A DNA stretch of 44,510 bases, taken from the sequence record NC_019716.1; one strand, 5' to 3'. The DNA is from Enterobacteria phage mEp460. The notes under the pieces are model-generated. The model saw nothing but the letters and a program-made list of their open reading frames with translations, did no database searches and was not told where the DNA came from. This document shows, piece after piece, positions 23,303 through 42,065 of the stretch (within the stretch, counting starts at the first letter, position 1; every line of letters starts with the position of its first letter). Made by a program: the position numbers and the translations under genes.

Positions 23303-24400
23303 TCAAGAGGTCTTATTTCTGCTCCTTTGGAGCTCTTCAAAACGATTATGTAAAGATTTCGGATACAGTTCGGTATATACCTGCCATAGCACGTTTAATG
23401 AACGATGCCCTGTAACCTGGGCGACTTCCTCAATACTAAAACCAGCCTCAAATAAGCGACTTGCCCCTCCTCTACGCAAATCATGGTATCGCAGATCTTT
23501 AATACCTAATTTGCTTCTTACCCTCTGGAATCCCGCAGTAACAGAAGTGCTGTTATATGGAAAAATGAATTCCGATTTTTGGGGCTGTCGTTGGGCGATA
23601 TCCCAGGCTTCCCCAAGCAAGGCTACTTTCATGTGGTTGCCTTCCTTTTTGCGTGGATCTTTCCTGTCTCTTACGAGTATAGATTTTTGTTCCTGGTCGA
23701 GATCTTCCCATCGTAACCGGCATACTTCTCCGATTCGCATACAGGACCACACAGAAAATTTGAGGATATCAACGAACGGAATTTTTGAGCATTTATGAGT
23801 AGATCGTTGTTGAAGGCCTTCAATGAGCATGTCCAGTTCATCAGATGCTGGTCTACGATTACGACGGTTTGATTTTCCAATCAAACCAAGTTTAAGTAGA
23901 TATGGACGAGCACTTTTCGCCGGGTTTGATGTGTAATTAATTCCGTATACAGGTTTGGCCGCATCCAGAACACTGCCAAGATAACTAACATCGTGGCTGA
24001 CTGTTGCTGGACCTGCGCCAGCGTTGTTTCTTAGCCTGCAATGTTCAATTACGTCATTTTCTGTCAGTTCAGATAGTTTGATCGCGGAGATGTCACTATC
24101 CATAAGCAGTTCTAGCACATATCTTTTAGTACGGCCTGCTTTACCTCCGGCATTTGGGTCATTTAAATATTTGTGTAGTAAGTCACGGACTGTAAGTCCG
24201 TCAACTGCATTTGATGATGGAATGCCATATAGATCTAATTCCATCACTTTCTGTGTGCCCCATGTTTTGGCATGAGCATGTTTAGGGAATGTTTTGCTTT
24301 CCCTGTAAGTGATAACACCTTTTTCATTGATAATCACATTACAGCGATAGCGTGGTGTGCCAACGGATTTTAGTCGTTTCTCTATGTTATAGTACGCCAT
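23303..24400 (-). CDS. int: Tyrosine integrase (site-specific recombinase)
   Basis: 365 aa; C-terminal catalytic-type region (HDLRRGGASRL...GHRSLNVLWQVY) typical of phage integrases. Confidence 0.9.
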   Translation of the reverse strand: MAYYNIEKRLKSVGTPRYRCNVIINEKGVITYRESKTFPKHAHAKTWGTQKVMELDLYGIPSSNAVDGLTVRDLLHKYLNDPNAGGKAGRTKRYVLELLMDSDISAIKLSELTENDVIEHCRLRNNAGAGPATVSHDVSYLGSVLDAAKPVYGINYTSNPAKSARPYLLKLGLIGKSNRRNRRPASDELDMLIEGLQQRSTHKCSKIPFVDILKFSVWSCMRIGEVCRLRWEDLDQEQKSILVRDRKDPRKKEGNHMKVALLGEAWDIAQRQPQKSEFIFPYNSTSVTAGFQRVRSKLGIKDLRYHDLRRGGASRLFEAGFSIEEVAQVTGHRSLNVLWQVYTELYPKSLHNRFEELQRSRNKTS

Positions 24401-28515: not shown

Positions 28516-28874
28516 TTCTTATTCTCCGGTGCTTTCGGCATTACTGCCCAGTGAGTGATATTGACGTTTTCAAGGTCCCCGATCTGAAATGTCCACTGCC
28601 ATTCTCCGGTTTCTTTTTGTCCCCAGGTGTACCAGAGAGAACGCCAGCCAATTAGCCAGCCTTCTCCGTTAGCATCAAATAACAGAACACTTTCATTTGC
28701 TGGTGGCAGTTCAGCTGACACTGGTATTATTTTGTTTTCCAGTGCCGCACATTTAGCTTCAAGCGCATCGAATTTACGTACCAGGTACTCAGCATTTGTT
28801 TCGTTCACTTTCAGATCTCGTGGTACACATTTCCCGCGAAGAAACCCTTCCATTTCGAAAACATTCATGCGCAT
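28512..28874 (-). CDS. DUF551-like protein
   Basis: 120 aa; C-terminal ITHWAVMPKAPE motif. Confidence 0.5.
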   Translation of the reverse strand: MRMNVFEMEGFLRGKCVPRDLKVNETNAEYLVRKFDALEAKCAALENKIIPVSAELPPANESVLLFDANGEGWLIGWRSLWYTWGQKETGEWQWTFQIGDLENVNITHWAVMPKAPENKK

Positions 28875-29413
28875 TTGCGTAACTCCGATAACTCGTTAAA
28901 ACGTTCCATAAACATCCCGTAGGCATGGCCCGGTGTCAGTGGAATCACGTTGAACATCTCTGTTGCCGGGATGCCTTCCAGTACAGGCCAGAAAGAGCCA
29001 TCATCAAGCCCGAGATCGCGGCGTTCGGTTGCCAGCATGATGAGATCGGCATATTTCACAGGCGTGCTCATAACCGGGGGTAACCCGTATTTCTCACGGA
29101 TTACGGCATCTATTTTTTCTTCCATCCGTTTATAGTCAGGAAGAAGTCGTTTCAGTGGCGCGGGGATGTCCTGGCAATATGCTTCTGTTGCATCATGCAT
29201 TAACGCTTCAAAAGCAAATTCCTGCGGCACCAGCTGGCTGCAAAGCACCGCATGCTGGGCGACACTGTAGAAGTGTGAAAGATGTCCTGCAAAGCGACAG
29301 ATATTTGAAAGGGAAACTGCGATATCGTTAATCACGATGTCGTCTTTATTTATCTTGTCATAATAAAAATGCTTCCCGGAAAAAGTTTTAATAAATGACA
29401 TTTCGTTCTCCAC
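28865..29413 (-). CDS. HD-domain phosphohydrolase (YfdR-like 5'-deoxynucleotidase family)
   Basis: H...HD...E metal-binding motifs (VAQHAVLCS...MHDATEAY); 182 aa. Confidence 0.7.
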   Translation of the reverse strand: MENEMSFIKTFSGKHFYYDKINKDDIVINDIAVSLSNICRFAGHLSHFYSVAQHAVLCSQLVPQEFAFEALMHDATEAYCQDIPAPLKRLLPDYKRMEEKIDAVIREKYGLPPVMSTPVKYADLIMLATERRDLGLDDGSFWPVLEGIPATEMFNVIPLTPGHAYGMFMERFNELSELRKCA

Positions 29414-29529
29414 TTTATATGCGCTGCACCGCGCTGAATTCTGCTAAAAGTGAGCTCTCACCATCCGGTGATTATTGAGTTAATTACGTTTCCATAAATG
29501 CCCCCGCAGGGGCATTTGCAGTAATGAAA

Positions 29530-30354
29530 TCAGGCGGTGAAAGTACCAATAAAGGTTTCTACTTTGCTGTCTTTGAATTTCTCAACAAGCAGATCACGAA
29601 ATTCGTTAGCCATATCTTCCTGCACCGCTTCCAGCTGAATAATGCGCAGAACCAGTACAGGACGATCGCCAGTGATAATGCTGAGGCGTAATTTAAACGG
29701 ACGTTCTTTCAGACCTTCAAACGGAACGCATTTAAATTCAAATGCCACTGGCATAATGTCTTTGGTCTTCGCTTCGACAGATTCCATCAGGGAGCGTTTG
29801 CCGCTGAAGTCATTATCTTCAAAATCAGCGGTCTGGTTTGCTTCAATCGTGATTTTACGGACTGCCGCAGCCGCTTTTGTTGCCTGAATAGCGTCACCAT
29901 TAGCATCAAAGCCCACAAGGTAGTCGGCCCAGTCTTCAATCCATTCTGCCAGTGACTTCTGGGAGTTACGCTCGCCGTTAACAGACAACAGGGCAGAGAA
30001 CGGTGCTGTCTTTTTCAGTTTGAGAGTGGCGGTGTTATCTGCGTGACCTGGTTCATCAATAGTACCCAGGTTAAGTACACTGACGGCACGCATATTATCA
30101 GCATCGATAAAGCAGCGGGTGCCTTCATCTGCAAGATCTTTAGAATAACGGGTAAAGTCATCGATGTTGGCAGTGGAAAGCGCACCACGGAAACGGAAGC
30201 GATTTAAATTAAATTTTTCCAGATCATGAATGCGGAAATTCTCAGGCAATGCCACAGCATCGGCACCAATCTTACTGATAATTTCATTAACACCCTGAGC
30301 AGAAATAAGGGCATGGATTTGATTAATTGCGGTTGCGTCTAAGTTCTGAGACAT
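29530..30354 (-). CDS. YfdQ-like protein (DUF2303)
   Basis: 274 aa, length and composition matching CPS-53-type YfdQ family as recalled; function unknown. Confidence 0.5.
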
Positions 30355-31505: not shown

Positions 31506-32198
31506 TTAATTGTGTCGCTTAAGGGTTTGTGACTGACTGATTAAGACCTTTCCAAAGACCATAAACCGATGTTCGTTTTCGCTGGTAATTCCCCATTCGC
31601 GGTAAATCTGATTATCAGAAATTACCAGCAGTTTATCAGGTATCATTTGCAGTCGTTTGACGTAAATTTTATCATCAAAACCAAATACATATATACCATC
31701 CCCATCAAACTGATTGATACTGATATCAACGAAGATGAGATCTCCTGGCTCAATGGTTGGACACATACTGTCCCCACGAACGTTGATAACTTTAATGTGA
31801 TTGGCTGGTCGTCCGCCAAACATCGATACAGCATTATCAGTTCTGTATTCAATGGCATGAATCACATCAATGACATCACCGCCCTGGATAAGGCCATTTC
31901 CCGCACTGGCACTGACATCCAGCATTTCAATACGGAATACATCCTTCACCTGCGCAACATCCTCACTAATACTGTTTTTACATACAGTATTACTTTTGAC
32001 GTCTGAGGTAAAGAGATCAGCAATATCAACACCTAAGCTCCTGGCAATATTACTCAGGGCTTGTTCAGTGAATTGTTTCTGCTTACCTGTTTCCAGGCGC
32101 GAGATATTCGCCGCATCCACTCCTATTGCTTCAGCGAGATCGGCGATTTTCATGTTCTTCGCCTGGCGAAGTTGTCTGACTCGGTTTCCTATGTTCAT
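31506..32198 (-). CDS. cI: CI-type prophage repressor (HTH_XRE plus S24 LexA-like autopeptidase)
   Basis: N-terminal HTH (VRQLRQAKNMKIADLAEAIGV), C-terminal GDSM catalytic Ser and VKRL Lys motifs. Confidence 0.9.
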   Translation of the reverse strand: MNIGNRVRQLRQAKNMKIADLAEAIGVDAANISRLETGKQKQFTEQALSNIARSLGVDIADLFTSDVKSNTVCKNSISEDVAQVKDVFRIEMLDVSASAGNGLIQGGDVIDVIHAIEYRTDNAVSMFGGRPANHIKVINVRGDSMCPTIEPGDLIFVDISINQFDGDGIYVFGFDDKIYVKRLQMIPDKLLVISDNQIYREWGITSENEHRFMVFGKVLISQSQTLKRHN

Positions 32199-32556: not shown

Positions 32557-33100
32557 GCATCACTGGAAAGTGGAAAAACAACCTGAGTGGTACGTGAAAG
32601 CTGTCAGAAAAACTATCGCGGCATTGCCTGGGGGTTACGCTGAAGCTGCTGACTGGCTGGATGTAACAGAGAACGCTTTATTCAACCGCCTTCGTGCAGA
32701 TGGCGATCAGATTTTCCCGCTGGGATGGGCAATGGTTTTACAGCGCGCGGCTGGCACTCACTACATTGCGGATGCTGTCGCACAGTCTGCCGGTGGGGTG
32801 TTCGTATCGCTTCCTGAAATTGAGGAAGTAGAGAACGCCGATATAAACCAGCGCCTGCTGGAAGTCATCGAACAGATCGGGAATTACTCAAAGCAGATTC
32901 GTTCGGCAATCGAAGATGGGGTCGTGGAGCCACACGAGCAGACAGCAATTAATGATGAGTTGTATCTGTCAATTTCGAAGCTCCAGGAGCATGCAGCACT
33001 GGTCTACAAAATCTTCTGCGCTCCAGAAAAGAGTGACGCCCGCGAGTGTGCAGCTCCGGGCGTCGTGGCGTTTTGTGTCTGTGGAGAAACTAACGCATGA
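32549..33100 (+). CDS. YdaT-family / CII-position regulatory protein, putative
   Basis: 183 aa immediately after cro with overlapping start; family assignment from recalled sequence pattern. Confidence 0.5.
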   Translation: MGKHHWKVEKQPEWYVKAVRKTIAALPGGYAEAADWLDVTENALFNRLRADGDQIFPLGWAMVLQRAAGTHYIADAVAQSAGGVFVSLPEIEEVENADINQRLLEVIEQIGNYSKQIRSAIEDGVVEPHEQTAINDELYLSISKLQEHAALVYKIFCAPEKSDARECAAPGVVAFCVCGETNA

Positions 33101-33245
33101 ACAGTTTAACGGCAAATAACCGTTTGTCGCAACAGCTGGTGGTCAGTGTCGCTGAACACCTGTTGTTACGGCATGAATGCAGATTACCAAATCACTTGGC
33201 TGTAAGTAACCACAGAGAACTTTACCTGACTGTGGGGGGCGAGTT

Positions 33246-33425
33246 GTGCAGGAACTTAACCGCTGGTTTCGTGACGGAAGAGGGCTTTATGTCCATGTTA
33301 TTCGTTGGGAGCCAGAAACACAGCGCGTTATCTATCTTCGCAAAGACTACCCGCATGAGTGCTTTAGTCCTTTGTGGAAATTCAGGCGTGATTTTGTTGA
33401 GTGTGAAGGACCACCAGCACATTGA
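33246..33425 (+). CDS. Small hypothetical protein (59 aa, GTG start)
   Basis: Protein-like translation (...RWFRDGRGLYVHVIRWEPETQRVIYLRKDYPHECFSPLWKFRRDFVECEGPPAH); GGGGGCGAG SD-like upstream. Confidence 0.3.
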   Translation: MQELNRWFRDGRGLYVHVIRWEPETQRVIYLRKDYPHECFSPLWKFRRDFVECEGPPAH

Positions 33426-33510
33426 TTCTGCCATTCCGGGACGTTACACTGTTCAGGCACCTTATAAAGCGGGTGCCGGGCGTGGAAACCCGGAATTCAC
33501 CAAAGCGCAC

Positions 33511-33534
33511 AACCGCGCTCTTGCGGTTTTTTTG
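33511..33534 (+). terminator. Intrinsic terminator in the early-right operon (tR1-like)
   Basis: AACCGC-GCTCTT-GCGGTT hairpin followed by TTTTTTT. Confidence 0.6.
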
Positions 33535-33702
33535 TGTAATGAGCAGCATTACGCCCAAATTATGGTGGGGCGTGCAGGGCCAACTTCGGTTGGGCCGGGT
33601 TCTTTGGTGACCGGTATTTCCACCCCTGTACGTCTCACCACCAATAAGGTCGTGGAAAGCCTTGGTGGTGAGTTATTAAAAATCACCAAAGAGGCTGCCA
33701 TC

Positions 33703-34248
33703 ATGGCTACGATCCCAACCCTCACTCAACCTGAAATTGCCATCGTTGATGGTCAGGCTGTTACTTCATCCCTGGCTGTTGCCAACTTCTTCTCCAAACG
33801 TCATGACGATGTACTGAAAAAGATCCGCACGCTTGAATGCTCTGCATCATTCACTTCCCGCAATTTTTCGGTGAGTGATTACACCGATTGCACAGGCCGC
33901 AAACTACCTTGCTATCAAATAACCCGCGACGGCTTTGCGTTTCTTGCTATGGGTTTCACGGGTAAACGTGCTGCCCAGTTCAAAGAGGCATACATCAATG
34001 CCTTTAACCAGATGGAGAAACAGCTTTCAAATCCCTCTGTACTGAGCGACGTTGCACATAACGCCAGCGTTCTCTATTCCTACATTTCATCAATTCATCA
34101 GGTCTGGCTGCAGCAGCTTTATCCTATGTTGGCAAAAGCCGAATCTCCGCTGGCTGTTAGCTTGTATGACTATATTAATGATGCTTCGGCACTGGCCTGC
34201 CTCATAAATTTGTCGCTGAACCCTTCAGAGGTAAGGGGGCGCAAATGA
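33703..34248 (+). CDS. Rha-family phage regulatory protein
   Basis: 181 aa; AAAGAGG SD 8 nt upstream; Rha-type pattern (VDGQAVTSSL.VA..F.KRHDDVLKKI...YQITRDGFAFLAMGFTGKRAAQFKEAYINAF). Confidence 0.7.
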   Translation: MATIPTLTQPEIAIVDGQAVTSSLAVANFFSKRHDDVLKKIRTLECSASFTSRNFSVSDYTDCTGRKLPCYQITRDGFAFLAMGFTGKRAAQFKEAYINAFNQMEKQLSNPSVLSDVAHNASVLYSYISSIHQVWLQQLYPMLAKAESPLAVSLYDYINDASALACLINLSLNPSEVRGRK

Positions 34249-34469
34249 TCCGGAATATTTTCAAACGGTTTACCAATCAGACTTTCCGTTGTCCTCGTCC
34301 GGGTCAGTGGTACACCACACCTGCAGGGCATGTTCTACGTGTTAGCCTGGTTGACCGTGAATGCCAGAAGGTGATTTGTGAACCGCTGGGCCGTAATTAC
34401 CGCGTCAGTATGCCGCTTATAGCCTTTCGCTCCGGAAAAAACATGAAGCATCTCGGAGGTGCAGCATGA
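34245..34469 (+). CDS. Hypothetical protein, translationally coupled
   Basis: 74 aa; ATGA overlaps at both ends. Confidence 0.45.
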   Translation: MIRNIFKRFTNQTFRCPRPGQWYTTPAGHVLRVSLVDRECQKVICEPLGRNYRVSMPLIAFRSGKNMKHLGGAA

Positions 34470-35284
34470 GTATGGAGCTGATGGTTAAAGCGATGAAAAT
34501 TCGAGTGGGTAATCCATTGCGAAAACTGGTTCTGATCAAGCTGGCTGATAATGCCAGCGATCAGGGTGAGTGCTGGCCCAGCTACCAGCATATTGCTGAC
34601 CAGTGCGAGATTAGCAAACGTTCTGTGATGAATCATATTGCGGCCCTTTGTGAGTCCGGGCTGGTAAAAAAAGTCACCCGGAAAGGTGAAAAAGGTAACT
34701 CAAGTAATATCTATCTCCTTCATCTGGATGGTGCAGGAGATTCACTAGGGGGTAGTGCAAATAATTCACTATCTGGTGCAGCAAATTCACCAGGTAGTGC
34801 AGGAGTTGCACCAGGGGGTAGTGCAGGAGATTCACCCAGAACCAGTCACTCTTTTGAACCAGTCAAAGAACCAGTCAATGAACCAATAGCTGTTGGTGCA
34901 TCAGTTGATGAGTCCGTGCGAGTTCGTTCAAACCGACCGGAATACTCTCCGGAGTTTGAGCAGGCATGGCTGGCATATCCCAAACGTGCTGGTGGCAATT
35001 CAAAATCTGCAGCCTTCAAAGCCTGGAAAGCCCGTTTGAACGAGGGGGTAAACCCCGAAACCATGCTGGAAGGTGTGAAACGCTACGCGGGCTGGGTATC
35101 TGCGATGGGCAATAGCGGCACACAATTTGTGAAACAGGCTGTCACGTTCTTTGGTCCAGATCGTCATTTCGAAGAATCCTGGGAAGTTCCTGCGGTATCT
35201 GCAGCCAGACGCGAGGACCCGTACTTCAAAGCCAGTTACGACAACGTGGACTACAGCCAGATCCCGGCAGGATTCAGGGGGTGA
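34466..35284 (+). CDS. Replication initiation protein, putative (N-terminal winged helix, O-like)
   Basis: 272 aa; N-terminal HTH (SYQHIADQCEISKRSVMNHIAAL), low-complexity linker encoded by DNA repeats, conserved C-terminal region. Confidence 0.55.
   Translation: MSMELMVKAMKIRVGNPLRKLVLIKLADNASDQGECWPSYQHIADQCEISKRSVMNHIAALCESGLVKKVTRKGEKGNSSNIYLLHLDGAGDSLGGSANNSLSGAANSPGSAGVAPGGSAGDSPRTSHSFEPVKEPVNEPIAVGASVDESVRVRSNRPEYSPEFEQAWLAYPKRAGGNSKSAAFKAWKARLNEGVNPETMLEGVKRYAGWVSAMGNSGTQFVKQAVTFFGPDRHFEESWEVPAVSAARREDPYFKASYDNVDYSQIPAGFRG
34728..34890. repeat. Iteron-like direct repeats inside the replication gene (candidate ori)
   Basis: GGTGCAGGAGATTCAC twice, GGGGGTAGTGCA twice, ACCAGTCA three times. 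Confidence 0.4.
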
Positions 35285-35775
35285 TCATGAGTCTTTTGAA
35301 TGAAGTTCAGAAATTCATTGAAGCCCATCCGGGGTGTACTTCCGGAGACATTGCGGATGCTTTTGCAGGTTACTCACGGCAGCGCGTTCTGCAGTCAGCA
35401 AGCAAGTTACGTCAGAGTGGGCGTGTGGCTCACCGTTGTGAAGGAGATACACGCAGACATTTCCCACGCCTGACTGAGAGAGCGCAGGAGCCGGAACCAC
35501 AACCAGTTCGTGAAACCAGACCTGTGCGCAATTTCTATGTCGGCACTAACGATCCCCGGGTGATTTTGTGCCTGACCCGCCAGGCGGAAGAACTGGAGTC
35601 CAGGGGCTTATACCGTCGTGCTGCAACGGTGTGGATGGCGGCATTCCGTGAAAGCCACTCCCAGCCAGAACGAAACAATTTTCTGGCGCGTCGTGAGCAG
35701 TTTTTACGGAAAAGCAGCAAGCGCGCTGTATCGGGTGATGAGTGGTATCTGTCAGGGAATTACGTGGGGGCTTAA
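35281..35775 (+). CDS. PerC/ANR-like putative transcriptional regulator
   Basis: 164 aa; C-terminal EELESRGLYRRAATVWMAAF...ERNNFLARR pattern; overlapping starts and stops. Confidence 0.4.
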   Translation: MIMSLLNEVQKFIEAHPGCTSGDIADAFAGYSRQRVLQSASKLRQSGRVAHRCEGDTRRHFPRLTERAQEPEPQPVRETRPVRNFYVGTNDPRVILCLTRQAEELESRGLYRRAATVWMAAFRESHSQPERNNFLARREQFLRKSSKRAVSGDEWYLSGNYVGA

Positions 35776-36428
35776 TGAGTAATAAATATTGCCAGGAGCT
35801 GGTGGAACTGCGGAACAAACCAGCCCATGAACTGAAGGAAGTGGGTGATCAGTGGCGCACGCCGGACAACATTTTCTGGGGAATTAACACCCTGTTTGGC
35901 CCGTTTGTTCTGGATCTGTTCACTGACGGTGATAACGCCAAATGTGCCGCGTATTACACGGCGGAAGACAACGCGCTGGCGCATGACTGGTCAGAACGCC
36001 TTGTGGAGCTTAAAGGTGCTGCCTTTGGTAATCCTCCATACAGCCGCGCCAGTCAGCATGAGGGGCAATACATCACCGGCATGCGTTACATCATGAAACA
36101 TGCCAGTGCCATGCGTGATAAGGGCGGGCGCTATGTTTTCCTGATCAAAGCTGCCACCAGCGAAGTGTGGTGGCCGGAAGATGCAGATCATATTGCTTTT
36201 ATTCGCGGGCGTATTGGTTTTGAACTGCCTGTCTGGTTTATCCCGAAAGACGAGAAGCAGGTACCGACAGGAGCTTTTTTCGCTGGTGCTATTGCTGTTT
36301 TTGACAAGACCTGGAAGGGACCGGCAATCAGCTACATCGGGCGCGATGAACTTGAGGCATGTGGTGAGGCGTTTCTGGCGCAGGTTCGCCAGCAGGCGGA
36401 AAAACTGGTCAGGGAGATGGTGGCATGA
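35775..36428 (+). CDS. Phage Dam-like DNA N6-adenine methyltransferase (orphan)
   Basis: GNPPYS catalytic motif; start at ATG 35775 (MSNKY) overlapping upstream stop; no adjacent restriction gene. Confidence 0.75.
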   Translation: MSNKYCQELVELRNKPAHELKEVGDQWRTPDNIFWGINTLFGPFVLDLFTDGDNAKCAAYYTAEDNALAHDWSERLVELKGAAFGNPPYSRASQHEGQYITGMRYIMKHASAMRDKGGRYVFLIKAATSEVWWPEDADHIAFIRGRIGFELPVWFIPKDEKQVPTGAFFAGAIAVFDKTWKGPAISYIGRDELEACGEAFLAQVRQQAEKLVREMVA

Positions 36429-36751
36429 CGACGTTAACTCAATGCCAGCAGCAGGTGCTGGATATGCTGATTTCTTATCAGAAAGAACGTGGCTTCCCGC
36501 CAACCAATCAGGAGGTGGCAACCATGCTGGGATACCGTTCAGTGAATGCAGCGGTGGAGCATCTTCGCGCACTGGAGAAAAAAGGCGTCATCACGATAAA
36601 GCGTGGCGTGGCCCGGGGGATAACGCTTCATACCGCGGTGAAGGACGACGACAGCGAGGCGGTCGGGATTATCCGCTCACTGCTTGCCGGTGAGGAAAAC
36701 GCAAGGCTGCGTGCAACCCACTGGTTACATGAGAGGGGCCTGAAAGCATGA
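36425..36751 (+). CDS. LexA N-terminal DNA-binding-domain homolog lacking the S24 peptidase domain
   Basis: 108 aa; LT.CQQQVLDMLISYQKERGFPPTNQEVATMLGYRSVNAAVEHLRALEKKGVITIKRGVARGITL parallels the LexA winged-HTH; short helical tail. Confidence 0.6.
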   Translation: MTTLTQCQQQVLDMLISYQKERGFPPTNQEVATMLGYRSVNAAVEHLRALEKKGVITIKRGVARGITLHTAVKDDDSEAVGIIRSLLAGEENARLRATHWLHERGLKA

Positions 36752-41012: not shown

Positions 41013-42065
41013 ATGAAAAATACTGTAAAAATAAACAGTGCTGATTTAATCAACGCTGATTGCCTGCATTTTATTCAGTCCCTGCCTGATGATTCCATTG
41101 ACCTGATTGTTACCGATCCGCCGTACTTCAAGGTGAAACCCAACGGCTGGGACAATCAGTGGAAAGGGGACGAAGATTACCTTAAGTGGCTGGACCACTG
41201 TCTGGCCCAGTTCTGGCGGGTGTTAAAACCTGCCGGAAGCCTTTACCTGTTCTGTGGGCATCGCCTGGCATCTGATATTGAGATCATGATGCGTGAACGT
41301 TTCAACGTGCTTAACCATATCATCTGGGCGAAGCCGTCCGGACGTTGGAATGGGTGTAATAAAGAAAGTCTGCGCGCATATTTTCCTGCCACAGAGCGCG
41401 TTCTGTTTGCTGAACATTACCAGGGGCCATATCGTGGCAAAAGTGACGGCTATGCGGCAAAAGAAAGGGAACTCAAACAGCACATAATGGCACCGCTGAT
41501 ATCGTATTTCAGGGATGCTCGTGCCGAACTGGGTATAACGGCAAAACAAATTGCCGAAGCCACAGGTAAGAAAAATATGGTTTCCCACTGGTTTGGTGCC
41601 AGTCAGTGGCAGTTGCCGAATGAGGCTGACTATCGGAAGTTACAGGCACTGTTTTCCCGTATAGCGGCAGAGAAGTTTCAGGAACAACAACTGGAACAAC
41701 CACACCACCAGCTGGTGGCATCTTATGATTCACTGAATCGCAAATATTCTGAATTGCTGGATGAGTTTAAATCTCTCCGGCGCTATTTCTCCGTATCAGT
41801 CTCCGTGCCTTATACCGATGTCTGGATGCATAAACCCGTTCAGTTCTACCCGGGTAAACATCCGTGTGAGAAACCGGCGGATATGCTCAGGCAAATAATC
41901 AATGCCAGTAGTCGACCCGGTGATCTGGTTGCTGATTTTTTTATGGGATCCGGTTCCACAATAAAAGCAGCAATGGCGCTGGGGCGTCGGGCCTTAGGTG
42001 TTGAGCTTGAGTCAGAGCGGTTTAACCAGACAGTGAAAGAGATAAACGAGCTGGTGGGGAAATAA
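41013..42065 (+). CDS. Beta-class DNA methyltransferase (N6-adenine or N4-cytosine), orphan
   Basis: DPPY catalytic motif N-terminal (LIVTDPPYF), AdoMet motif C-terminal (DFFMGSGST); no partner restriction gene. Confidence 0.85.

Follow-up and report, generated by a model that had tools for sequence, protein, structure and literature searches.

Where does a lambda-like temperate phage begin its replication when it encodes an initiator but neither a helicase nor a helicase loader? Enterobacteria phage mEp460 (sequence record NC_019716.1) raises this question. Its complete genome, 44,510 bp in length, was analyzed here and is referred to as the window. Its rightward early operon carries an O-like initiator gene. 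A sequence-only reading of this DNA had drawn attention to clustered direct repeats in the linker-coding part of that gene. Pattern counts and shuffles bear this out: the cluster consists of five iteron units followed by three copies of a 10-mer. On the strength of repeat layout, conservation, and covariation with the initiator, the segment at 34731-34884, inside the initiator gene at 34466..35284, is probably the replication origin of the phage. The features on which this reading rests are as follows.

34466..35284, plus strand: initiator gene, 272 amino acids (aa), SfV orf39 type (open reading frame [ORF] list, Pfam, and PHROG 270 "replication initiation protein").
34466..34729, plus strand: coding region of the winged-helix DNA-binding domain, aa 1-88 (Pfam HTH_36 and alignment of relatives).
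34731..34835, no strand assigned: iteron array, five 15-bp dyad-symmetric units GTGCA-N5-T(T/G)CAC (pattern count, homologue conservation, and covariation with the recognition helix).
34731-45, 34755-69, 34776-90, 34797-811, and 34821-35: the five iteron units, plus-strand matches of GTGCANNNNNTKCAC.
34838..34884, plus strand: conserved DNA element AGAACCAGTCA-CTCTTTT-GAACCAGTCA-AA-GAACCAGTCA-ATGAACC, abutting the last iteron.

The initiator is a member of the HTH_36 phage replication initiators over its whole length. Pfam places HTH_36 at aa 17-67 (E = 1.8e-11, 44.1 bits versus a cut-off of 25), the PHROG 270 profile matches aa 3-271 (E = 1.7e-88), and the "replication protein" encoded by orf39 of phage SfV is 100% identical to the window initiator. 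In an alignment of 10 relatives, mean column identity in the N-terminal domain was 67%. A profile search of the PDB with this domain returned weak winged-helix matches only (FadR/GntR, MarR, and the DnaD N-terminal domain, the last represented by 2vn2 at E = 0.087), and the DnaD_N score of 24.3 bits in Pfam lies under the cut-off of 27 for that family. The alignments from these weak matches were used to place the predicted recognition helix, S50-K-R-S-V-M-N56-H-I, at aa 50-59. The DNA of the replication region is 96-99% identical to that of SfV, Ayreon, 2H10, 1720a-02, and the Shiga toxin (Stx) phages of the Stx2c, Stx2k, and some Stx2a groups, and 84% identical to that of Salmonella phage 118970_sal3. 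Since the module is found in isolated phages (e.g., SfV, Ayreon, the PhiR phages, and the Stx2c/Stx2k phages), we count it as working in real phages. A scan of IMG/VR with the initiator protein returned near-identical copies only.

The pattern GTGCA-N5-TKCAC has no further match in the window beyond the five units. Shuffled sequences (n = 100) contained 0.29 matches on average and 2 at most, and the observed count was reached by none of them. When the codons of the linker were shuffled instead (n = 300), the best cluster held 1 to 3 units in 299 cases and 4 in the remaining one. One unit, at 34797, is fully palindromic in the 5-N5-5 form, and the other four carry one arm-to-arm mismatch each. 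Successive units are spaced by 24, 21, 21, and 24 bp (mean, 22.5 bp) and occupy nucleotides (nt) 266-370 of the gene (aa 89-124), so that the array begins at codon 89, directly past the HTH_36 domain. All five units share one codon frame, and the encoded peptide is rich in glycine, serine, and alanine. Tandem Repeats Finder and a repeat search, the check suggested along with the original observation, detected these arrays as well (periods, 21/24 and 12). The repeats thus stand, but the "three families" into which they had been sorted do not: these are overlapping views of two elements, the 21-24-bp array and the 10-mers.

Homologues were drawn from annotated phages and from a one-genome-per-species scan with an N-terminal domain profile, which added 80 loci from the Enterobacterales, Pseudomonas, Aeromonas, Shewanella, Vibrio/Aliivibrio, Marinomonas, Xenorhabdus, and others. 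An array was counted where at least three clustered 15-nt units fell within gene nt 230-480. Absence of the repeats from relatives had been named beforehand as the observation that would speak against an origin. What emerged was the reverse: of 83 homologous genes, 81 carry the array, 72 of them with at least four units, and it is placed as in the window, at aa ~87-99. Among the full-length genes (n = 64), 57 have 4 to 8 clustered units in the linker, while the controls (the N-terminal part, the C-terminal part, and the codon-shuffled linker) yielded 1 or 2 units and never more than 3. The spacing was 21 bp in 91 intervals, 22 bp in 41, 23 bp in 42, and 24 bp in 82, with few others (256 of 280 intervals at 21-24 bp; mean, 22.45 bp). 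In 49 genes, including those of Pseudomonas PseuP_222, mEp044, Klebsiella RAH1, and Vibrio D79, the units lie in more than one codon frame, which indicates that the repeat belongs to the DNA and not to the peptide. Unit number varies: phage cdtI (L082, 3266-3436) has eight units by way of an exact, in-frame 66-bp tandem duplication of three units, and an Enterobacteriaceae prophage (L096) has seven. In Candidatus Phlomobacter fragariae, one locus (L142) keeps a single recognizable unit before the conserved element, a second (L144) is cut to 63 aa, and a third (L149) has three units. Some PLSDB entries filed as plasmids are phage-sized and encode the N-terminal domain (e.g., NZ_CP148393.1, 44.6 kb), and ten records of Arsenophonus nasoniae, nine of them sized 28-48 kb, encode it as well; such records may be episomal phages or phage-plasmids on this replicon.

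The sequence of the units differs among lineages, and the 5-N5-5 dyad form is retained while both arms vary together. The half-sites observed were as follows.

GTGCA/TGCAC or TTCAC: window, Pseudomonas, Aeromonas.
GTGAC/GTCAC: Vibrio D77 and D79, mEp044, Erwinia, Izhakiella, Aliivibrio.
GGGCA/TGCCC: Stx2a_F451.
TGCCA/TGGCA: RAH1.
CCTGTGCC...GCAC, a longer site in which arm pairing is less clear: S107, ZF40.

These changes track the predicted recognition helix. Eight distinct genes encode Arg56, seven of which have GTGAC-type units by the strict pattern, and the eighth has GTGA[CT]-N5-GTCAC. None of the 74 genes lacking Arg56 has GTGAC-type units; 62 have units of the GTG[CA]A type and 12 have other sites. 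The comparison is closest for the Erwinia and Izhakiella genes (L140 and L151), which encode N-terminal domains 79-84% identical to those of the window and L131 and differ from them within helix residues 50-58 solely by N56R. The repeats are therefore selected at the DNA level, dyad symmetric, helically spaced, and covarying with the recognition helix. Paired half-site change that follows the recognition helix is expected if an initiator dimer binds the repeats in its own gene, and the iteron units are very probably binding sites of the phage's own initiator. The single N56R exchange, which goes with a switch from GTGCA to GTGAC sites, suggests a simple way in which phage origin specificities could diversify.

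The second part of the candidate origin directly adjoins the array. The 10-mer GAACCAGTCA is present in three exact copies (at 34839, 34856, and 34868, the last extending through 34877), and the window contains no other exact copy. Of 82 distinct homologous genes, 73 carry a 35-nt core, AGAACCAGTCACTCTTTTGAACCAGTCAATGAACC, immediately past the last unit when up to 7 mismatches are allowed. Non-consensus frequencies at the three codon positions were 0.059, 0.079, and 0.070 in the element versus 0.092, 0.069, and 0.431 in the N-terminal block. Third codon positions of the element are thus as conserved as the first and second, indicating that it is constrained as DNA. Wherever the RTSH peptide is retained (44 of 44 sequences, those of Pseudomonas prophages among them), its arginine codon is AGA, and the G+C (GC) content of the surveyed loci ranges from 38 to 61%. 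Within the window gene the 10-mer is read in two codon phases (RTSH and EPV), and in Shewanella prophages its first copy is read in the other phase. A 41-nt query made from the element matched 137 records of the phage collection; where annotated, the matches were always inside O-like, helix-turn-helix, or "primosomal protein I" genes, and the carriers include phi24B, Aeromonas AsXd-1, Stenotrophomonas BUCT708, and Aggregatibacter S1249. Two other functions were considered for the element and dropped: a programmed frameshift at TCTTTTGA, those positions being the least conserved of the element, and an integration host factor site or leftward promoter, for which inspection by eye gave no consensus match.

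A nearest-neighbor profile of duplex stability was used to locate the weakest 40-mer up to 500 bp away in either direction at each of 70 loci. This segment fell inside the element at 32 loci and in the left flank of the iterons at 19. The window belongs with the latter, and its left flank is a second candidate for the site of unwinding.

34686..34726, no strand assigned: least stable duplex of the window origin region, left of the iterons, alternative unwinding site (nearest-neighbor profile; GC fraction of 0.383 in 34670-34729).

The element at 34838..34884 is likely the unwinding or helicase-entry part of the origin. A bolder proposal, which we advance only tentatively, is that the GAACCAGTCA repeats could be a universal sequence-specific origin core of temperate phages of Escherichia, Salmonella, Klebsiella, Pseudomonas, Vibrio, Aeromonas, Shewanella, Stenotrophomonas, and Aggregatibacter. 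This core would be independent of iteron type and of the helicase or loader partner, would be recognized as DNA through a conserved surface of the initiator or through a conserved host factor, and in the SfV group might let a loaderless initiator load host DnaB directly. The element coincides exactly with the point at which C-terminal domains are exchanged, is not AT-rich, and is not the least stable segment of the window, as might be expected if its conservation instead marked a patch for C-terminal module exchange, the site of another factor, or an mRNA signal. We regard such an explanation of the element as unlikely: recombination alone would be unable to keep ~35 nt near-invariant across loci of such different GC content, the position of the element is fixed relative to the last iteron, it is the least stable 40-mer at nearly half of the loci profiled, and the two codon phases of the 10-mer speak against a codon-based mRNA signal.

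Past the element, the gene encodes the part of the initiator that presumably recruits a helicase or loader.

34940..35200, plus strand: conserved C-terminal domain, aa ~159-245, YSPEFEQAW...FFGPDRHFEE (alignment and AlphaFold).

The AlphaFold model of this domain has four helices and a moderate mean predicted local distance difference test (pLDDT) score of 70. The domain belongs to no Pfam family, phmmer and a profile search of the PDB gave no match, Foldseek of the model against the PDB returned nothing with an E value of <1, and a protein search with the C-terminal part returned mostly fragments. Gene neighborhood is more informative. In phiP27 and in two Rahnella, a Phytobacter, and a Kosakonia prophage (L112, L117, L128, and L138), the same C-terminal domain is followed by DnaC-like and DnaB-like genes in 5 of 5 cases; in the SfV group and in Vibrio phages D77 and D79 the domain is present but such genes are missing. 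Pfam scans found no helicase, loader, primase, or polymerase among the window ORFs. As had been read from the sequence, the gene directly downstream of the initiator is PerC-like (Pfam on the following genes), and no helicase or loader gene matched to the C-terminal domain follows there in the manner of lambda. Because the phage has no helicase or loader of its own and the same domain stands beside DnaC and DnaB genes in relatives, host DnaB/DnaC is the presumed client. On the simplest reading of these neighborhoods, the C-terminal domain works with DnaC/DnaB-type proteins, and the SfV group would use those of the host.

Across the survey, the N-terminal domain and iterons are combined with varied C-terminal domains, each with its own downstream partner gene (lambda-P-like, DnaC-like, DnaB-like, primase-helicase, or "replisome organizer"). 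At four loci (L095, L096, L097, and L170) they are joined to a C-terminal domain ~40% identical to that of lambda O, with a DnaC-like gene following in three, which is direct evidence of module exchange with true lambda O. The left operon of the window (28865-30354, minus strand) encodes homologues of YfdQ (DUF2303) and YfdR (HD 5'-deoxynucleotidase). K-12 YfdR is reported to bind DnaA and to inhibit the DnaA-DnaB interaction (PMC4776307), and one may speculate that YfdR could free host helicase for a loaderless phage.

The layout of the locus, the homologue arrays, and the helix covariation all favor the analogy, drawn in the sequence-only reading, with the lambda origin iterons inside O, and initiation at 34731-34884 would be expected to proceed as follows. 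The initiator would be transcribed from the early rightward operon, and its N-terminal winged-helix domain would bind each of the five dyad iterons, probably as a dimer. Because the iterons lie about two helical turns apart, the resulting complex would resemble the lambda O-some. It would then strain the adjoining DNA, most likely at the GAACCAGTCA-repeat element or alternatively at the low-stability left flank, after which the C-terminal domain would bring in the replicative helicase, presumably host DnaB-DnaC.

Several results weigh against an origin at this place. The element next to the iterons has a GC content of 43% and is not AT-rich as in lambda, and in mEp460 the least stable duplex lies on the opposite side of the array from the element. 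No relative with a known structure or function could be detected for the C-terminal domain, so that the argument for helicase recruitment comes from gene neighborhood alone. A mini-replicon consisting of the initiator gene by itself was not found among plasmids, where the gene occurred only on phage-sized or large records. Independent support was not forthcoming from a sigma-70 promoter scan of 34200-35400 (no sites), from a search for DnaA boxes with at most one mismatch (none within ~1.5 kb of the locus, the nearest similar sites being at 33080 and 37428), or from Rfam (no RNA family at the origin). Folding of 34720-34900 as single-stranded DNA was not significant (z = -1.28).

Plasmid iterons are generally known to serve both initiation and its control, and no strongly AT-rich tract lies beside the array. 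The units could accordingly bind the initiator but serve autoregulation, copy control, or incompatibility (roadblock or handcuffing), with the true origin elsewhere in the phage. This is improbable, given that there is no second motif cluster in the 44.5-kb genome, that layout, spacing, and linker position equal those of the lambda ori, and that a DNA-constrained element is fixed beside the last unit in most of the homologous genes, which a pure operator would not need. That the repeats are merely a slippage-made, low-complexity Gly/Ser/Ala linker with no function as DNA, as the single frame and peptide composition in the window and the in-frame duplication in cdtI might suggest, can be dismissed, since the mixed frames elsewhere encode unrelated peptides and already contradict it, dyad symmetry survives changes on both arms, intervals of 21-24 bp are kept regardless of divisibility by 3, and unit sequence tracks the recognition helix.

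The candidate origin and its gene are embedded in a conventional genome plan. Genes of lambda type for terminase, portal, capsid, and tail fill 1-22.7 kb, followed by the integrase (23303-24400) and the leftward early operon. The rightward early operon consists of cI (31506-32198, on the minus strand), cro, a CP76-type cII-like gene, a Rha/Ash antirepressor gene, a 74-aa ORF, the initiator gene, and genes for the PerC-like protein, Dam, a protein with a LexA DNA-binding domain, and RusA. Downstream of RusA are KilA-N, DUF968/HNH, antiterminator Q, and then the lysis genes. The immediate neighbors of the initiator gene are as follows.

34245..34469, plus strand: small ORF, 74 aa, phrog_1153, no Pfam family; its stop overlaps the initiator start codon (ATGA).
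35281..35775, plus strand: PerC-like gene, yfdN in RefSeq (E. coli) (Pfam PerC).

The 74-aa ORF is found only in close relatives (SfV orf38, cdtI orf45, and Salmonella phages). The PerC-like gene is absent in cdtI, where dam directly follows the initiator gene, and it is therefore not considered part of the replicon. The LexA-domain protein (36425-36751, plus strand; 108 aa) contains the DNA-binding domain only (Pfam E = 2.9e-19), without a peptidase domain; its gene lies between those for Dam and RusA and is kept in SfV (orf42) and cdtI (orf48). The window has two DNA methyltransferase genes, one of the Dam family right past the replication region (35742-36428, plus strand) and one of the N6_N4_Mtase family downstream of Q (41013-42065, plus strand). 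Upstream, Rfam identified a C4 antisense RNA at 33558-33645 (plus strand, 83.6 bits), isrK at 33457-33533 (67 bits), and a weak c4-a1b1 target at 33444-33496 that scored under the gathering threshold. All three matches lie within the 5' part of the ORF at 33097-34248, which encodes Ash and Rha domains. The arrangement resembles P1/P7-type immI control of an antirepressor, and the 5' end of the 383-aa ORF has probably been called too far upstream; the SfV annotation has a shorter "immunity region" gene at that place.

This initiator type is encountered very frequently: roughly half of the complete E. coli genomes have a match to it, and in 897 of 5,426 the match spans at least 80% of the gene. 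The same type drives SfV and several types of Stx phage. A precise origin prediction makes several matters testable: which host functions are needed, how a helicase is recruited without a loader, and whether the induction of toxin phages depends on origin strength. The 10-mer element, moreover, shows with unusual clarity how the function of DNA can override the choice of codons within a gene.

Iteron plasmids such as RK2, pPS10, R6K, and F have a Rep protein that binds an array of ~20-bp repeats as well as repeats in the unwinding element, and the array lies beside short direct repeats in the opening region. The mEp460 locus is like them in having an array of probable sites of about this size for the element's own initiator next to short direct repeats. 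It is unlike them in that the origin is intragenic, Pfam finds no Rep_3 or RepA-type domain in the initiator, and no DnaA box is nearby. The K-12 cryptic prophage CPS-53 (yfdO, yfdN, and yfdQRST) offers a further comparison. RefSeq names the PerC-like neighbor of the window initiator yfdN and the left-operon genes yfdQ and yfdR. In its C-terminal part, the window initiator shares 98% identity with a 122-aa E. coli "replication protein" (P0008). We take yfdO to be the K-12 name of this initiator remnant, and its length suggests that the K-12 copy lacks the N-terminal domain and the iterons.

Closer parallels are found among the Stx phages. HTH_36 proteins occur in the replication types Eru5, 6, 8, 11, and 13 (PMC8951638), and phages of the Eru5 and Eru6 types share the gene order cI, cro, cII-like gene, Rha/Ash, and HTH_36 protein with the window (PMC8951638). 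Near-identical DNA is present in Stx2a_1447, Stx2a_WGPS2, and the Stx2c/Stx2k phages, and together with the gene order it assigns the window to these non-lambdoid Eru types. Stx2a_F451, Stx2a_F403, and phi24B ("O2") have the same N-terminal domain together with their own iterons, GGGCA-N5-TGCCC in the case of Stx2a_F451, and the 10-mer element. The Eru classification is based on gene content, describes no origin, and states that the replication proteins of these phages are not understood (PMC8951638), and a comparative study of phi24B distinguished five O/P systems without giving origins (PMC3430580). A literature search for motifs and iterons of this initiator family, with the SfV genome paper outside its reach, returned unrelated primers only.

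The most instructive comparison is with lambda itself. In the lambda record, four 18-bp dyad iterons spaced by 20, 24, and 23 bp lie at nt 349-433 of the O gene and are followed by an AT-rich tract, the same layout as has been described for the lambda ori (PMC7466680). In both phages, dyad direct repeats with a mean spacing of ~22 bp lie inside the initiator gene, between the parts encoding the DNA-binding N-terminal and partner-binding C-terminal domains. In both, copy number varies among relatives, the initiator gene is located past a cII-like gene in the early rightward operon, and the protein is modular with swapped C-terminal domains. In contrast, the initiators have no detectable sequence similarity (the best BLASTP match has an E value of 0.02 over 22 residues), and Pfam assigns HTH_36 and no Phage_rep_O match to the window initiator. 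The window units are 15 bp of the 5-N5-5 form, whereas those of lambda are 18-19 bp; the GAACCAGTCA-repeat element takes the place of the AT-rich tract; and no P-type loader gene is present past the window initiator. An intragenic iteron origin is thus classical as a kind and is here well supported in a different initiator family, and the locus points beyond lambda in two respects, its lack of a loader and its conserved 10-mer element.

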